Assembly (NCBI GenBank): GCA_046496745.1
Contig: JAWOGQ010000090.1
Span: forward strand, 7,861-39,860
Source of the DNA: Candidatus Woesearchaeota archaeon
Lineage (GTDB): Archaea > Nanobdellota > Nanobdellia > Woesearchaeales > JACJVW01
Direction of reading: 5' to 3'
Length of the DNA stretch: 32,000 nt
Positions 2,108-8,452 of the stretch are shown piece by piece. The position numbers and the translations under genes are program-made. The notes under the pieces are model-generated. The model saw nothing but the letters and a program-made list of their open reading frames with translations, made no database searches and was not told the DNA's origin. Each line of letters begins with the position of its first letter. Positions within the stretch are counted from its first letter, which is position 1.

Positions 2108-2160
2108 AGTATTTAAACTTTTTGTGAGTCAATATTTGAAGTGTTGTACAGGATCTGACC

Positions 2161-2176
2161 AAAAAATATTTAAGAA
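2161..2176 (+). promoter_or_regulatory. possible TATA-containing promoter of the 2210-6956 operon
   Basis: AAAAAATATTTAAGAA lies ~40 nt upstream of GTG 2210. This would leave a short leader carrying the GGGGGG Shine-Dalgarno-like run at 2199-2204. Confidence 0.3.
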
Positions 2177-2209
2177 TGTTCTACTATACAGTGAAAACGG
2201 GGGGACAAC

Positions 2210-4696
2210 GTGGACTTTACTGAAGCATTAAAGCATATTGATGATTTCACTTTCTCTAAAGATATCTCAGATTATCTTGATTCAGAGATAGATAAATATT
2301 CTAATGGTGGTTATGTCAGGCTTTCTGATCTTGTAAGTATGATTGATGAGAATCTTTATCGGAGTATCCGACCAGAAACTGTTGTAAAAAAGGAGGAAGC
2401 ACAGAAAGCATTGCGTTCAATCATGCTTGAGCATCCAGAGGGATTCGGTGATTATATGCAGAATCTTGAGGAACGTCTGGAGGTTCAGGCTGATCCTTCT
2501 CAAGACTATAGTTCTATGCTTGAGCATTATGCGCGACAGAATCGGCAGAAAAGTAATGATGCGGTTCCATTGTCCAGGCTGGTCAGCCTGTTCTATGATG
2601 ACCCAAATCCTAATACTGTAAAGAATAAGGTCTATAATGTAAAGCCCCATCTCCTGGAGGACCTGGAGGATAAGCTTATCTGCAAGACTTCAAGGGTATC
2701 GGTGCCTATGGAGAATGTTGAGGAAGTGGTTGGTGAAATATCAGCCCATTTCCATGAAACTGCATGGGATAATGTCATGGCTAACCTTTCCAGGGAAGTC
2801 TCCAGTATTGATGCTTTGACTTATAAGCCTGATAAGACAAGGAATAAGTCCAGTATTGATACTTTTGATAGGCAGGAGAACACTGACGAGAAATGGAATG
2901 AGGAGGAACAGTTCAATGTTGGTGCTTTTGATGGTCAGGCATATAATGAGAACCATTTCAGTGATGAATTGAATGCTTATTGCCAGGATAACCTTCAAAG
3001 GGGAATGATCCCTTTTAGCAGTCTCCTGGCATTGTTCTATCCTAAAAATGCCCGGCAGGCTGTATTTGCACGGACCAACAGGATAAAGGAGGAATTGAAG
3101 GAAGGCAAATTGACTTATCTACAGGATAAATCAGAGATAATAACAACAGGGCGAAATGAGAAGCTTATGGTTCATCCTGATTATGCTCCTGATGTGGTAA
3201 GGTATTTCATGACAGATAATGAAAGGTTAGATCATTTCCGGAAGAATATTTCTTATGCTAATAGGTCGGCTAATAGCTCAGGGATGTCTGATGCTTCTTT
3301 AGAATCATGCATCAGGAAAAAATTCTCCTCGTTTGAAACACATGAACAGGATTACATGCTTGAAAATCTTAATGGCGAGTATAGTCCTTTGAAGTTGCTA
3401 CATGCATCAGTGGATGCTTATCTTGAGATGCCTGCCAGTGAAAGAAGCCATTACAGCAGGAAAGAGGCTGTATCTTATGTATCAGATAAGCTTGGTATTG
3501 ATCCAGAAGATGCTAATGAGATCATACCTGGTGAGTTCTTGTTTCGCGTGGTAGCGACAAGGGATCTTGTGGACAAGAAAAAGCTTGAAGATTTTCTGGC
3601 TGAAACTAATTATTCTGAAAAGCCTGAAGTGACTGGAATTCCAGGTAACCCAGTATCTCCTGCATCGTCTTATGAATCAGCAGATTCCTCTGCAGGAATG
3701 GCGATTGCTCCTGATAAGGATTTGCCTGAATCTTCTGAAGATAAAACCTTATCCTCTGATAAATCATTTTCAGGAGAAGATACTATTCTTGTCAAAGACC
3801 CTGAAACAAGATCTATCTATGATGAAAGTCCTGATTCTTCCGATTCTGTCAAAGACCCTGGAATTGATACTACTTATGATAAACCTGCTACATTACCTGA
3901 ATCCTTTGGTAAATCAACTGGATCCTTTGATAAATCAGTTGAATCTTTTGAAGGGTTAGATGATACTGCTCCTGTTAAAGATTCTGAGATAGCTGATACT
4001 GTTCATGGTCCTGAGACAATTGATATCACTTATGATAAGGGTTCTTCCGATTCAGTTCAAGGGCCTGAGATAATATCCCGGGAGAAGCTTTATGCAACTA
4101 ATGCAAAAAAGTTTCTCAAACAAGTGAATCCTTATCTTTCGCCTGCGCTTATAGATGATATCCTTAGAAGGGCGGATAATACGGTCGAGAAACAGCGAAA
4201 GTTTTTTACCACCTCTGCTTTGATTGATAGTTTCCTGCAGATGGAGGATTGCCAGTTTGAGGAACTAAGAATCAAGGAACAGTATTCCTTAGCACCAAAC
4301 GAGGTCGTTGGTTATGTGGATCATTCACGTTTTGTTGATTCTTTGCCAAAGGAGGAACTTGAGCAATTTGGTTCCCTGAATTCCTTCATAATAAAACACA
4401 GGTTAACCGGGCCTTATACAAGGAATGGAAATGTTTGCAGGGCATCATATGACTTATTGAAGGACCATCTTAAGGTATCAATCAAGAGTATCCCTGAGTA
4501 CCAGCCGCCTACATGGATGGCAGGAGAAACAGAATACACTGATTTTAAGGGTGCGGTTGACATGATGGGAATACGGATGAGCGAGTTTACAAAATACGCT
4601 GATAGATTCACACTTGAGGATTTTGGGGTCACTGGAGTCCCTTTGCATGAAGTCATTGATATAAAGAACAGGGAGCTTTCAAATGGGATTAAATGA
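2210..4696 (+). CDS. large hypothetical protein (828 aa), upstream partner of the sigma-70-like gene
   Basis: A long uninterrupted ORF with a GTG start preceded by GGGGGG, overlapping the downstream gene by 14 nt. It contains two copies of a ~30-aa [VI]P.S.L..LFY module (nt 2564-2659 and 3008-3100). It also has a Ser/Asp/Pro-rich degenerate-repeat region (nt ~3617-4075) and a C-terminal HTH-like segment (IRMSEFTKYADRF). No known family recognised by eye. Confidence 0.8.
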   Translation: MDFTEALKHIDDFTFSKDISDYLDSEIDKYSNGGYVRLSDLVSMIDENLYRSIRPETVVKKEEAQKALRSIMLEHPEGFGDYMQNLEERLEVQADPSQDYSSMLEHYARQNRQKSNDAVPLSRLVSLFYDDPNPNTVKNKVYNVKPHLLEDLEDKLICKTSRVSVPMENVEEVVGEISAHFHETAWDNVMANLSREVSSIDALTYKPDKTRNKSSIDTFDRQENTDEKWNEEEQFNVGAFDGQAYNENHFSDELNAYCQDNLQRGMIPFSSLLALFYPKNARQAVFARTNRIKEELKEGKLTYLQDKSEIITTGRNEKLMVHPDYAPDVVRYFMTDNERLDHFRKNISYANRSANSSGMSDASLESCIRKKFSSFETHEQDYMLENLNGEYSPLKLLHASVDAYLEMPASERSHYSRKEAVSYVSDKLGIDPEDANEIIPGEFLFRVVATRDLVDKKKLEDFLAETNYSEKPEVTGIPGNPVSPASSYESADSSAGMAIAPDKDLPESSEDKTLSSDKSFSGEDTILVKDPETRSIYDESPDSSDSVKDPGIDTTYDKPATLPESFGKSTGSFDKSVESFEGLDDTAPVKDSEIADTVHGPETIDITYDKGSSDSVQGPEIISREKLYATNAKKFLKQVNPYLSPALIDDILRRADNTVEKQRKFFTTSALIDSFLQMEDCQFEELRIKEQYSLAPNEVVGYVDHSRFVDSLPKEELEQFGSLNSFIIKHRLTGPYTRNGNVCRASYDLLKDHLKVSIKSIPEYQPPTWMAGETEYTDFKGAVDMMGIRMSEFTKYADRFTLEDFGVTGVPLHEVIDIKNRELSNGIK

Positions 4697-6956
4697 TTTG
4701 TTGACGGTTGAGGATACTAAATGGGTGCATGAACAACAGCTTATAGATTATGGCATGAAAGGGTATCTTAACAAGCTTGTATGGTCAAAGGATGATGAGC
4801 ATGGTTCATCTTATCTTGCATGCGAGGTAAAAGGCATGCTCCTGAGAGAAGGGCTTGTCTCGCGTAATGGTTATAGCGGGTTTGTTGATCCGCTGAAGCT
4901 TGCAACAACACTTGCGAGAAATTATGATATGAGTGTGGGACAGATTCTCGGAAGAATCGAGGAAGATCAGAGTTTATGGGACGAATATGTGGAAGATAAT
5001 CAGATACAAAGGGGGGTTCCTGCTGAGCGTGTGAGCGACTTATTCTATGGGAAGAGCCAGAAGTTCTCGATTGAGCATATGGATCGTGTGAATACTGCTG
5101 TAAAAGAAGATATCCCTCCTATATCTATAGATAGCACGAATTGCAACCCATTCCAGGCGCTGGCTTATCTACTTGAGAATGTGGGTAAGAAGAGTGCAGA
5201 AGAGATGGCATATGAGATCGGAGAGGATACAACAAAGATTGAGCTTTTTCTCTATAAGAATGATTTTTTAGTGCTTACAGAGGATGAATTGAGTGAGAGG
5301 CTGGCAAGATACAAGAAAGGGGATGTCGAGTTTCCAAGTACTTTCTCAGATAAATATGATGACATGTCAATCTCTGAGTTCGTGAAAAAGACAAATGTCT
5401 CTTATGGGGATACGCTGAAGCTTACGCATGCAGGATTACTGGAGAGTTATGTCACTTATCTGAAATCTGAACATACTGGTTCTCATCCGGTGCATAAGAT
5501 TACAGGAAGAAGCATAATCTATCATCTGAGAGAATTGCGTAACGAGGAATACCAGAAAAAGGTTGACGAGGCACTTGCTATAGATGATATCCCCTGGGAC
5601 AATAAGAAGGGAAAAGAGTTGGATTCATGGTCAAAATATGGAGTCTCTCCTTTCAAGAGACATATCAACCAGCTGAAAAAGATTCCTGTCTTCACGAGGG
5701 AAGAGGAAAAGGCACACTTTGAAAAGATAAATCAGGAGAAAGATAATATCCTATCTGAGGTGGCTTCAACAAAATATATGCAGTCTGAACTCGAAAAGTT
5801 ATGTGAGCATGCAGAGAAGGGTTCAAGGGGATTCTTGAGAGCTTATCATCATAAGATACTCGATGGAGCAGATGTTGAAGAAGTAAGGGAGAACTTTCTT
5901 GAACAGTACTCCAGGTTTAAAGAAGGGGAGGCTGATGTGAGATCCCTTGATCTGTCATACCGGATAACAGAGAGGGTTGTCAGGAATCTGAAGAATGTAT
6001 GCTGGGATCTCAGGATACTGGATCAGAAGAAGGCTACTTTTGATGAACAGATAAACAGGGTAGGTTCTGCATCTGATCATGAATTGGCAAGGCGGGTGAA
6101 GTATAATCGACAGATGTCAAGAAAAATTCAGGGCAAAAAGGAAAGTCTACTTAATGATTTTGAGATGACGCAGGAGGAGCTTGAAAGCAAGATGGAAAGG
6201 ATTGTATCAAGTGAGGCCAATATCGAACACCTTACGCATGAACTTGTCCTGAGGAATGCCAGGATCCTGTCATACATGTCTTTGCCTCATCAATATTCTT
6301 ATTCAGTAGAGGGTCTTATGCATGCTGCTGAGTTGTTCGATCCGAAAAAGGGTAACAGGTTCATGACATATGCTCTTTCCTGGATCAGACAGAGCATTAA
6401 GCGTTCAAAGCATAATACCGGGTCTACAATCAGAAAACCAGTCCATATATGGAGTAAGGTTGAGGCCATGACTGAGACAGAGATAGATTTCATGCATCAA
6501 TACAAGCGGCCACCTACCATGAAGGAGCACTGGAAGGTATACAATGAGAAATCAGAGGAGGATATCTCTTTCAAGAGATTCCAGGAACTCAAGATAATTG
6601 CTGCAGATACTGTTTCTTTGGATTCTCCTGTTAATGGAGGCAACAGTTTTGAGAGAAATGAGAGTAGCCTGATCGATTTTATCGAAGGAAAGGGCAGCGA
6701 GCATTACCTGACTCCTGAGAAATTAGTCGAGAAAAATCAATTAAAGGACAGAACTCAAAAACTGATGGCTGAACTGACTGCAAGGGAATCAAAAGTCCTT
6801 CGCATGCGTTTTGGTATAGGTTATGAGCCGCATTCTCTTGAAGAGGTAGGATCTGACCTTGAAGTCACAAGGGAGCGTGTCAGACAGTTGGAAAAGAAAG
6901 GTCTCAATAAACTCAAGCATTACAAAAGGTCGAGGCAACTCAAGCCTTTTTCATAG
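4683..6956 (+). CDS. sigma-70-family protein (regions 1.2, 2, 3, 4 present) with a novel ~320-aa N-terminal extension
   Basis: Region 1.2: SPFKRHINQLKKIPVFTREEEKAHFEKI. Region 2: GNRFMTYALSWIRQSIKRS...STIRKPVH. Region 4: LTARESKVLRMRFGIGYEPHSLEEVGSDLEVTRERVRQLEKKGLNKLKH, near-identical to the RpoD LTAREAKVLRMRFGI...LEEVG..F.VTRERIRQIE.KALRKLRH. AGGGAG lies 8 nt upstream of ATG 4683. The frame has a stop at 4662-4664, so 4683 is the first possible start. Confidence 0.9.
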   Translation: MGLNDLLTVEDTKWVHEQQLIDYGMKGYLNKLVWSKDDEHGSSYLACEVKGMLLREGLVSRNGYSGFVDPLKLATTLARNYDMSVGQILGRIEEDQSLWDEYVEDNQIQRGVPAERVSDLFYGKSQKFSIEHMDRVNTAVKEDIPPISIDSTNCNPFQALAYLLENVGKKSAEEMAYEIGEDTTKIELFLYKNDFLVLTEDELSERLARYKKGDVEFPSTFSDKYDDMSISEFVKKTNVSYGDTLKLTHAGLLESYVTYLKSEHTGSHPVHKITGRSIIYHLRELRNEEYQKKVDEALAIDDIPWDNKKGKELDSWSKYGVSPFKRHINQLKKIPVFTREEEKAHFEKINQEKDNILSEVASTKYMQSELEKLCEHAEKGSRGFLRAYHHKILDGADVEEVRENFLEQYSRFKEGEADVRSLDLSYRITERVVRNLKNVCWDLRILDQKKATFDEQINRVGSASDHELARRVKYNRQMSRKIQGKKESLLNDFEMTQEELESKMERIVSSEANIEHLTHELVLRNARILSYMSLPHQYSYSVEGLMHAAELFDPKKGNRFMTYALSWIRQSIKRSKHNTGSTIRKPVHIWSKVEAMTETEIDFMHQYKRPPTMKEHWKVYNEKSEEDISFKRFQELKIIAADTVSLDSPVNGGNSFERNESSLIDFIEGKGSEHYLTPEKLVEKNQLKDRTQKLMAELTARESKVLRMRFGIGYEPHSLEEVGSDLEVTRERVRQLEKKGLNKLKHYKRSRQLKPFS

Positions 6957-7138
6957 GGAAATCCTCAACTAAATTTTTTCATAAATTAATGCTTGCACTC
7001 AATCGTTTATCCTGCGGATCCTTTAGATATTGCCTTGCGTAACTTCTTTTATAGGTGTCATCAATCAGTACCGCATAAACCTGTTATTCCTGTTTGCTGC
7101 ATTTGAGTGTACGCATTCTATGGTTTCTGGAAAGCGCT

Positions 7139-7155
7139 AGAAAGATTTATATAAG
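7139..7155 (+). promoter_or_regulatory. BRE/TATA archaeal promoter
   Basis: AGAAAGATTTATATAAG, with the TATA centre ~26 nt upstream of ATG 7176. This implies a leaderless mRNA. Confidence 0.5.
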
Positions 7156-7175
7156 TATATCCTTGATAAAAATGC

Positions 7176-7841
7176 ATGTTTGAAACAGATATAAACCTGG
7201 CAAAAAGATTCATGGATGCTCATCTCCAGGGTGCTGAACTTGTTCTTGTGACTGGTTCAAGGGTCTTTGGTATAACAGAGAGCGATTTTGACCTTTGCGT
7301 GGTAGGGGATTTTTCCGAAGAAGAACTTCGTCGTTATACAAAGTTTGTCACTCTTGAAAAAAAGGTATTCTCAGGTGTTGAGTTTGAGGTACAGGTGGTC
7401 TCATGGGATGAGATCGAAAAGGCTATGGGGAATTATCTTTCCTGGGAAGCATGGCATTTCCATAATGCTTATGTGTTGCATGATCCTTCTGGAAGGTTTG
7501 AAAAACTTAAAGGGCCTTTTCCTGAGTGTAAGGAGGATATGCTGAGGCTCTATGAGCATGCATATGACAGCGTGAAGAACGCGAGAAAAGCGCACATGAG
7601 AGGGATGTATGCTACAGAGGCATCACACAGTTCAGAGGCTCTGCAATATTCATTGTCAGTGCTTTTCTTGTTGAACCGCTCGTATATCCCGCCTGTAAAA
7701 TGGAGGCTTTACTTGTCCGCTAACCTTGAAAAGACGGTCCCTTACGAGGAATCATACATGCTTGAGCAGGTAGAAAGCTTTCTTGAGGGTGTGCGAAAGC
7801 TCCTGGCACAGGAGGTGCCTGTAGAAAGGGTAGAAGGATGA
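7176..7841 (+). CDS. Pol-beta-superfamily nucleotidyltransferase domain protein (KNTase-like, helical C-terminal half)
   Basis: GSRVFGITESDFDLCVVGD fits the minimal nucleotidyltransferase signature G[SG]-x(9-13)-[DE]x[DE]. The C-terminal ~120 aa look all-helical. Confidence 0.65.
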   Translation: MFETDINLAKRFMDAHLQGAELVLVTGSRVFGITESDFDLCVVGDFSEEELRRYTKFVTLEKKVFSGVEFEVQVVSWDEIEKAMGNYLSWEAWHFHNAYVLHDPSGRFEKLKGPFPECKEDMLRLYEHAYDSVKNARKAHMRGMYATEASHSSEALQYSLSVLFLLNRSYIPPVKWRLYLSANLEKTVPYEESYMLEQVESFLEGVRKLLAQEVPVERVEG

Positions 7842-8452
7842 AACTTCTGGATATTCTCTTGCGTCCGAAGAAAGGTATCGATGAGATCAGGGAGGATGGA
7901 CTGGGACAGGCAGCATTCTTTCTTGTGACGCTCATACTGTTTGTCTTCTTGTTTCTCACCTATACATATCTCCAGCAGATAAACGCTTACCTTCAGCAGA
8001 TCGGGTTGGGGATAACGATAACTCCAAAGGTCTATATACTCGCGTATGTGGGGTTCTCGGTATTCTTCATAATCCTTGCATTTTTCAGGTGCTGGATAAT
8101 ACATCTTTTTGTGCGCCTTTTCAAAGGGAAACATGGCTATGCTGAGACATACAAGGCACTGGTGTATGGGCGGGCGCCGGAATACATATCTGCACCGCTC
8201 CTGTTCTTGATTTTCATCCTGGTATTGAGGGGAATGTATCTATGGGTCATTATTCCTGGGTTATTGGTTGCAGGTCTTTCTGTATATCAGATGGTGCTCC
8301 GGTCCAGTGCATTGGCAAGCTTGCAAGGACTCAGTAAGGGAAAGGCTTTTCTGAGCATATATGTCCTTGGTTTTATCGTGCAGTTGCTGGTCTTGGTTGT
8401 AATCGAGGTTATCTTGATATTGCTTTTTCTTGTGGTTAGATCAATCGGCTGA
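7838..8452 (+). CDS. polytopic membrane protein, Yip1-domain-like
   Basis: A polar N-terminus (MKLLDILLRPKKGIDEIRED) is followed by about five hydrophobic helices. An ATGA start/stop overlap links it to the upstream nucleotidyltransferase gene. Confidence 0.6.
   Translation: MKLLDILLRPKKGIDEIREDGLGQAAFFLVTLILFVFLFLTYTYLQQINAYLQQIGLGITITPKVYILAYVGFSVFFIILAFFRCWIIHLFVRLFKGKHGYAETYKALVYGRAPEYISAPLLFLIFILVLRGMYLWVIIPGLLVAGLSVYQMVLRSSALASLQGLSKGKAFLSIYVLGFIVQLLVLVVIEVILILLFLVVRSIG

Follow-up and report, generated by a model that had tools for sequence, protein, structure and literature searches.

Sigma-70 genes have been described in DPANN archaea (fam00359), where they are "particularly prevalent in Woesearchaeota"; in that survey mis-binning was excluded, no anti-sigma factors were found and the mechanism was left unclear (Castelle et al. 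2021, PMC8204110). The locus described here raises a sharper form of the question, i.e., what a bacterial-type sigma protein does in an archaeal cell when its polymerase-docking helix has been rewritten and most of its DNA-reading parts have been kept. The window, which is the whole 32,000-nucleotide (nt) stretch analysed (contig JAWOGQ010000090.1, positions 7,861 to 39,860 of the forward strand, assembly GCA_046496745.1, Candidatus Woesearchaeota archaeon), carries a 2,274-nt open reading frame (ORF) at 4683-6956 on the plus strand that encodes a 757-amino-acid (aa) sigma-70-like protein, P0001; nt 6237-6443 specify residues 519-587, which correspond to regions 2.1-2.4. Our tentative answer, drawn from sequence comparisons, is that P0001 could descend from a sigma factor and still read promoter-like DNA, its docking helix having acquired a new target, most likely the partner encoded by the translationally coupled upstream gene, and that it could act as an accessory regulator.

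The assignment of P0001 to the sigma-70 family was based on profile, pairwise and structural comparisons. In Pfam, Sigma70_r4 (PF04545) matched residues 694-746 with 63.1 bits (cut-off 24.1), and Sigma70_r2 (PF04542) gave a partial match to residues 544-575 with 25.1 bits (cut-off 24), covering profile positions 33-64 of 71. The top NCBIfam models were RpoD, where P0001 lies below the curated cut-off of the equivalog NF004208 (166.6 versus 555 bits), and MzaA (154.1 bits, cut-off 800). The best phmmer matches among PDB chains were RpoD/SigA (E = 1e-35). A Foldseek search with the AlphaFold2 (AF2) model, only parts of whose sigma portion were confident (moderately so), matched the sigma70 of E. 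coli and that of Vibrio across some 490 columns.

To locate the alteration, 66 sigma-like ORFs from genomes of the same phylum were aligned with E. coli K-12 RpoD (L027), whose numbering is used below for single residues unless P0001 residues are named; the other archaeal sigma-likes serving as comparators number 63 for identities and residue counts and 62 for the column scan. Over the E. coli span 399-410, identity to RpoD is 0% in P0001 and its two closest relatives; the 63 comparators average 58% and none is that low. The reading made earlier from the letters of this stretch (the sequence-only reading) had proposed that region 2.2 diverges while the DNA-contact regions are kept, and this asymmetry was borne out, since regions 2.4, 4.1 and 4.2 of P0001 stand near or above the group means (53% versus 56%, 59% versus 35% and 62% versus 64%, respectively; rated as at or above those means, with region 4.1 exceeding all 63 comparators). 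Set against the same 63, region 2.2 proved not to be as conserved as regions 2.4 and 4.2 in a proper alignment.

The segment from N383 to M413 comprises 22 aa in P0001 (22-24 aa when the two closest relatives are included) versus a modal length of 31. A three-residue deletion (NIG) had been proposed at this place; MAFFT and the profile-profile alignment of hhalign favour instead the removal of nine residues at the hairpin tip (N396-L404), which hhalign shows as a single 9-column gap covering the tip plus the opening turn of helix 2.2. The placement is uncertain, in that two HMMER pairwise alignments, which are unstable here, put the gaps between regions 2.1 and 2.2 differently, and the NIG version, although not preferred, is kept as a formal alternative by an invariant E-G pair. 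Contact between bacterial sigma region 2.2 and the beta-prime clamp helices is reportedly made through D403, Q406, E407 and N409 (Sharp et al. 1999; Young et al. 2001). All four are replaced in P0001 and both closest relatives; the changes in P0001 are Q406 to S, E407 to Y, G408 to S and N409 to V, and D403 falls within the deletion by profile alignment and is H by MAFFT. In region 2.1 of P0001 the equivalents of N383 and R385 are kept, L384 is changed to A and V387 is lost. P0001 therefore lacks the complete region 2, with 2.1/2.2 hairpin and docking residues, by which the Sigma-70 family is recognized.

Most archaeal sigma-likes of the phylum keep a near-canonical 2.1/2.2 in the alignment. 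D403 is present in 58 of the 63 comparators, and among the 17 sigmas on contigs longer than 100 kb the docking surface is represented by D403 in 15, G408 in 16, E407 in 13 and N409 in 12. Because most archaeal sigmas keep these polymerase-grip residues, something in the archaeal cell would still select that surface, and some clamp-helix-like partner is apparently maintained by selection there. Neither a bacterial core enzyme nor the C-terminal domain of its alpha subunit was found in the window's own genome (1.33 Mb in 107 contigs, 96% complete); it encodes a TATA-binding protein (TBP) and a split archaeal Rpo1, whose two parts lie side by side as ORFs of 914 and 379 aa (292 bits versus a bacterial beta-prime cut-off of 963.5 bits), and P0001 supplies its sole Sigma70_r4 match. 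A loss of binding to bacterial core is thus meaningful only against the other archaeal sigma-likes, and since these keep the docking residues, the contrast with P0001 and its relatives is informative. Bacterial contamination or mis-binning was ruled out: the 39.9-kb contig holds archaeal housekeeping genes (aIF2-alpha, S15, a RecJ/GAN-like DHH protein, arginyl-tRNA synthetase, FtsZ, Spt5, L11, the archaeal D-aminoacyl-tRNA deacylase DtdA and Elp3), which is why the gene is not taken for a binning artefact, and the 17 control sigmas lie on contigs above 100 kb. P0001 thereby fits the description of the DPANN sigma-70 homologues, i.e., a sigma-70-family gene on an archaeal chromosome that is not mis-binned.

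When the N-terminal 330 aa of P0001 were searched exhaustively with HMMER against 1.84 billion representative proteins, six relatives of 756-810 aa were recovered (P0002, P0003 and P0009-P0012), all with the N-terminal domain, which P0001 has in common with these six only, and all with the shortened hairpin. The eighth hit, P0013, was rejected as a spurious match to a C2H2 zinc-finger protein. No further members came from word-indexed searches with the N-terminal region and the upstream partner P0007; pattern scans of genome and metagenome contigs yielded nothing beyond the contig of P0002, and plasmid and phage collections gave generic RpoD-like matches only. In a maximum-likelihood tree of the sigma2-4 region, the seven full-length proteins and a short one of about 460 aa from a same-order genome (L029), which has no N-terminal domain, form one clade among the canonical archaeal sigma-likes (Shimodaira-Hasegawa-like approximate likelihood ratio test, SH-aLRT, 99), from which it follows that the hairpin change is derived and arose once.

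Within this family the altered helix is the opposite of a decaying segment. The remnant of region 2.2 (P0001 residues 538-547) has a mean pairwise identity of 57%, the highest of all regions in the seven-member family, compared with 52% for region 4.2, 40% for region 2.4, 30% for the N-terminal domain and 22% for the spacer, in proteins that are 28-45% identical overall. It follows the motif [YF][ST]x[ASC]xEG[LG][MI], in which E543 and G544 (P0001 residues) are invariant. The sequence-only reading had called region 2.2 eroded, a description that does not survive this comparison; being the best-conserved segment, the remnant would rather have been remodelled to a newly selected interface, and the conservation pattern points to such a remodelling. 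The losses are also sharply placed. Among 48 columns conserved in at least 75% of the 62 comparators, 11 of which fall in regions 2.1/2.2, the family loses four (V387, D403, E407 and G408), where a column counts as not lost if at least two of the seven members keep it, and all four lie within those 11 columns (hypergeometric p ~0.002); 44 of the 48 are not lost, and 37 are kept in at least five members. Sigma70_r2 matches the family members from profile position 29-33 of 71 only, with 24-37 bits, or not at all; in nine control archaeal sigmas from large contigs the match runs in every case from positions 1-5 to 66-71, with 53-82 bits.

The regions that would read DNA present a different picture. 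The -35 recognition helix is TRERVRQ in P0001 and TRERIRQ in E. coli RpoD (583-589), as had been noticed from the letters, so that region 4 is of the Sigma-70 kind; P0001 keeps E555, R562, F563, I565, R584, E585, R586, R588 and Q589 in region 4, and R584, E585, R586, R588 and Q589 are found in all seven family members. In and around the -10 recognition element, P0001 keeps the equivalents of F419, F427, Y430, W434, R436, Q437, R441 and R451, and changes K418 to L, Y425 to N, W433 to S and T440 to K. The residues named earlier (Y430, W434, Q437 and R441 kept, W433 to S, T440 to K) were all correct against RpoD, and F419 and F427 may be added to those retained; Y425 and K418 are changed as well, and the claim that the -10 contacts persist holds to that extent only. 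DNA-contact retention in P0001 is incomplete because W433 (the melting wedge), Y425 and K418 are lost; P0001 and its two closest relatives have S/T for W433, N/S for Y425 and L for K418. The W-W dyad is kept by the more distant members P0009 and P0011, so that W433 persists in two of seven members; Y430 and W434 are found in 7/7, and Q437 and R441 in 5/7. L006 and L029 are without Q437 and R441, and L029 also without W434. The proposal that DNA recognition was kept and core binding lost therefore stands as a sharply localised pattern in the sequence, without the erosion it supposed and with less complete retention of DNA contacts.

The remainder of P0001 is colinear with a group 1 sigma factor in part. 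The N-terminal domain remained unmodelled (AF2 predicted local distance difference test, pLDDT, below 50). The NCBIfam alignments begin at residue 455 (RpoD) and 323 (MzaA), and the AF2 model has long helices across residues 339-524; the spacer (351-515) resembles the sigma non-conserved region, and the Foldseek alignment takes in that region of E. coli sigma70. Region 3 keeps the equivalent of H455 and changes E458 to S, and it carries two clade-specific inserts, HWKVYNEKSEEDISFKRF in region 3.1 (window 6510-6560) and GGNSFERNESS in the region 3.2 linker (6620-6660), which are conserved among the three closest family members.

The candidate partner, P0007, matched no Pfam, NCBIfam or PADLOC family. 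The middle of the protein is rich in Ser, Asp and Pro. At L004, L005 and L006 the sigma gene is immediately preceded by a counterpart of the C-terminal 200 aa of P0007 (36-47% identity), and there too the stop and start overlap; these three are the only loci at which genomic context was readable. A weak repeated module is common to P0007 and P0001 (E = 0.03). P0007 is a large multi-module protein and may bind DNA. The C-terminal domain had no significant fold match in the PDB, and a search of 400 other genomes of the order did not turn it up, leaving aside a single borderline hit (E 0.006) to a 121-aa frame. Its sole confidently modelled part is its beginning, the 60 residues 621-680 of P0007 (window 4070-4250; pLDDT 73-87), which form a beta-alpha-alpha-beta-beta-alpha unit reminiscent of a winged helix.

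These observations can be put together as follows. One rare clade has lost the tip of the 2.1/2.2 helical hairpin through a deletion of nine residues, and what is left of helix 2.2 has been rewritten to a new, strongly conserved motif, with the loss of all residues by which bacterial sigmas reportedly dock on the clamp coiled-coil. Selection has continued to hold the helix-turn-helix for the -35 element, the contacts to the extended -10 and the -10 duplex, and the residues of the base-flipping pocket (F419, F427, Y430, W434). On the reading preferred here, P0001 would be a neofunctionalised member of the DPANN sigma-70 homologues. Such a protein may still read promoter-like DNA of the -35/-10 type through regions 4.2 and 2.3-3.0, having given up docking on a polymerase clamp in the manner of canonical sigmas, the other archaeal ones included. 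The rewritten helix, possibly together with the 320-aa N-terminal domain, would then contact a different partner, for which the translationally coupled 828-aa P0007 is the most likely candidate, and the pair would constitute an accessory sequence-specific DNA-binding and regulatory module and not a general initiation factor. In favour of the accessory role are the lack of a match to the cassette in two same-genus genomes and the lack of a genome-wide excess of sigma-70-type promoter sites.

Several points weigh against re-targeting. The assignment of the partner has gene order at three loci as its basis. The L029 protein has the truncated hairpin, yet its N-terminal domain is missing and no P0007 gene lies beside it. 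The AF2 models are of low confidence near residues 533-575, and "lost docking" has meaning only relative to whatever the canonical archaeal sigma-likes bind. The flap-contact residues of region 4.1 (E555, R562, F563, I565) are kept, though they are also structural, and a protein that went on melting promoters on a polymerase could be expected to keep the base-flipping residues Y430 and W434, as P0001 does.

The last two points lead to the best surviving alternative, which we consider unlikely but worth serious attention, namely that P0001 is an initiation or specificity factor still bound to polymerase, its new helix 2.2 docking on the clamp coiled-coil of Rpo1N, directly or via P0007, and guiding RNA polymerase (RNAP) to -35/-10-like promoters. 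The strong conservation of the rewritten helix, the presence of a region 1.2-like segment and of region 3.2, the retention of F419 and F427 beside Y430 and W434, and the full W-W dyad in two family members would all suit such a factor. Yet other sigma-likes of the same order, which face the same kind of RNAP, keep a canonical 2.2, so that an adaptation to this polymerase is unexpected in one rare clade; the cassette has no match even in same-genus genomes; and P0001 has lost W433, Y425 and K418. Nor is there an excess of sigma-70-type promoters: TTGACA-N16-18-TATAAT sites number 705 genome-wide versus 687 +/- 30 in simulations, and 28 versus 22.8 +/- 5.9 locally.

A role in defence or in a mobile element is, in our estimate, improbable; here P0001 would resemble MzaA of the MZA anti-phage system and would sense or regulate foreign DNA, not host genes. 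MzaA is indeed the sole PADLOC match (84 bits), and the NCBIfam MzaA alignment spans residues 323-756; its score, however, is far under the 800-bit cut-off and not above that of generic RpoD (167 bits), and with no MzaB-E or other PADLOC component among the neighbours, membership in MZA was rejected. The cassette is accessory and sporadic, and in L004 the sigma-like gene for P0002 is followed, after about 290 nt, by an rve-family integrase gene (3096-3866); against this, no convincing terminal repeats bound the cassette, and its guanine-plus-cytosine (GC) content of 41.0% lies inside the genome range of 42.7 +/- 1.7%, with no compositional oddity. Also in favour are the genes on its flanks, which encode STAND-like AAA+ ATPases and a nucleotidyltransferase-like protein, but the flanking ATPases are conserved in a same-genus genome without the cassette.

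We give a still lower rating, that of a long shot, to a more specific picture of natural separation of function, in which the canonical DPANN sigma-likes would dock on the archaeal RNAP clamp and the present clade would have been re-targeted to P0007 as a polymerase-independent or adaptor-bridged reader. That P0001 has no function left and is what remains of a transferred sigma gene in decay, region 2 being the first to erode, is scarcely credible: regions 2.1-2.3 do diverge from consensus, and Q437 and R441 are gone in L006 and L029 and W434 in L029, but the ORFs of 756-810 aa are intact in seven proteins of only 28-45% identity, losses touch only 4 of the 48 conserved columns, the helix supposed to be eroding is the best-conserved segment of the clade, and the translational coupling to the partner is conserved. 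The reading that we tentatively prefer thus remains that of a re-targeted DNA reader.

The coordinates of the gene, its regions and its surroundings are given in Table 1. The cassette flanks match two same-genus assemblies (G364 and G463) at 72-91% nt identity, with 2127-7140 unmatched and homology to G364 ending at about 2131. The G364 contigs stop exactly at both borders of the cassette, and for this reason the site looks like a variable spot; G463 retains the downstream nucleotidyltransferase/Yip1 pair (about 7141-8051) at 65% nt identity. The A-rich stretch with TATTTAAG upstream of P0007 suggests a candidate archaeal promoter for that gene.

Table 1. Features of the sigma-70-like gene and its surroundings (window coordinates)
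Feature	Coordinates	Strand	Basis
Sigma-70-like gene P0001, 757 aa	4683..6956	+	ORF, Pfam, PDB phmmer, Foldseek
Family-specific N-terminal domain, residues 1-320	4683..5642	+	No Pfam/NCBIfam match
Region 1.2-like segment (residues 322-350), then helical spacer (351-515)	5646..6227	+	NCBIfam profiles, model
Region 2.1, residues 516-537, C-terminal end shortened; deletion junction ~6293/6294	6228..6293	+	Alignment, hhalign
Rewritten region 2.2 remnant, residues 538-552, YSYSVEGLMHAAELF	6294..6338	+	Alignments, family conservation
Regions 2.3-2.4, residues 553-586, -10 recognition/melting	6339..6440	+	Alignment to RpoD
Regions 3.0-3.2, residues 587-685, inserts in 3.1 and 3.2	6441..6737	+	Alignment
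Region 4, residues 686-757, including -35 recognition helix TRERVRQ	6738..6953	+	Pfam Sigma70_r4, alignment
Upstream partner P0007, 828 aa, 14-nt overlap with sigma-like gene	2210..4696	+	ORF
Two-gene accessory cassette	2131..7140		Unmatched in two same-genus assemblies
A-rich stretch and TATTTAAG, candidate archaeal B recognition element (BRE)/TATA ~40 nt upstream of P0007 start	2161..2174	+	Read from sequence

Sigma2-4-like matches were found in 132 of 401 sampled genomes of the same phylum, in ORFs spanning 260-1,763 aa, and several genomes carry tandem pairs of sigma-like genes (ORFs of about 290-700 aa) at L010 (G195:C3), L038 (G252:C13), L059 (G151:C6) and L064 (G084:C7). The window's order comprises well over 100 families, with genomes of 0.6-2.1 Mb. 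One sigma-like ORF, at L008 (G210:C21), is near-identical to E. coli RpoD throughout region 2 and clusters with the bacterial proteins of the tree, so that either the gene was acquired very recently or a bacterial contig has entered the bin. P0002 occurs on a 10.6-kb ENA contig (L004), assigned to the window's order because its aminoacyl-tRNA synthetase (Pfam tRNA-synt_1b) is 70% identical to that of genomes in the order, and on a 2,982-bp contig of an NCBI metagenome-assembled genome (L005/L069) labelled "uncultured Methanosarcinales archaeon", a label that is probably a binning or labelling error.

Compared with known systems, P0001 resembles group 1 sigma factors (RpoD/SigA) in its colinear region 1.2-like segment, long spacer, regions 2.3-2.4, 3 and 4 and in a nearly identical -35 helix; it differs from them in lacking the core-docking determinants of region 2.2 and W433 and in having the inserts in 3.1 and 3.2, and at its N-terminus region 1.1 was not detected and a 320-aa domain of no known family is present. 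Like MzaA (NCBIfam NF041931, PADLOC PDLC02203), it is sigma-70-like, measures about 700-750 aa and begins with a long extension; on the other hand, its N-terminal 320 aa are unmatched, its score against the model is 154 versus 800 bits and there are no MzaB-E neighbours. The closest precedent is the DPANN sigma-70 homologues (Castelle 2021, PMC8204110), which are likewise bacterial-type sigma-70 proteins encoded on archaeal chromosomes alongside TBP and an archaeal RNAP, with no known anti-sigma; in contrast to them, the P0001 clade has the 9-residue hairpin deletion, the rewritten 2.2, the 320-aa N-terminal domain and the coupled 828-aa partner. No mention of the rewritten-hairpin variant was found in the literature searched. 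Sigma-70 genes in DPANN were thus already published in 2021, and what is added here is the rewritten-helix clade, in which the surface for gripping the clamp that most archaeal sigmas keep has been swapped and the DNA-reading parts have been kept. A canonical and a rewritten-helix sigma taken as a pair could settle whether such proteins touch archaeal RNAP, and if the two forms do represent the separation of function outlined above, setting them side by side would reveal the role that bacterial sigma factors play in archaeal cells.

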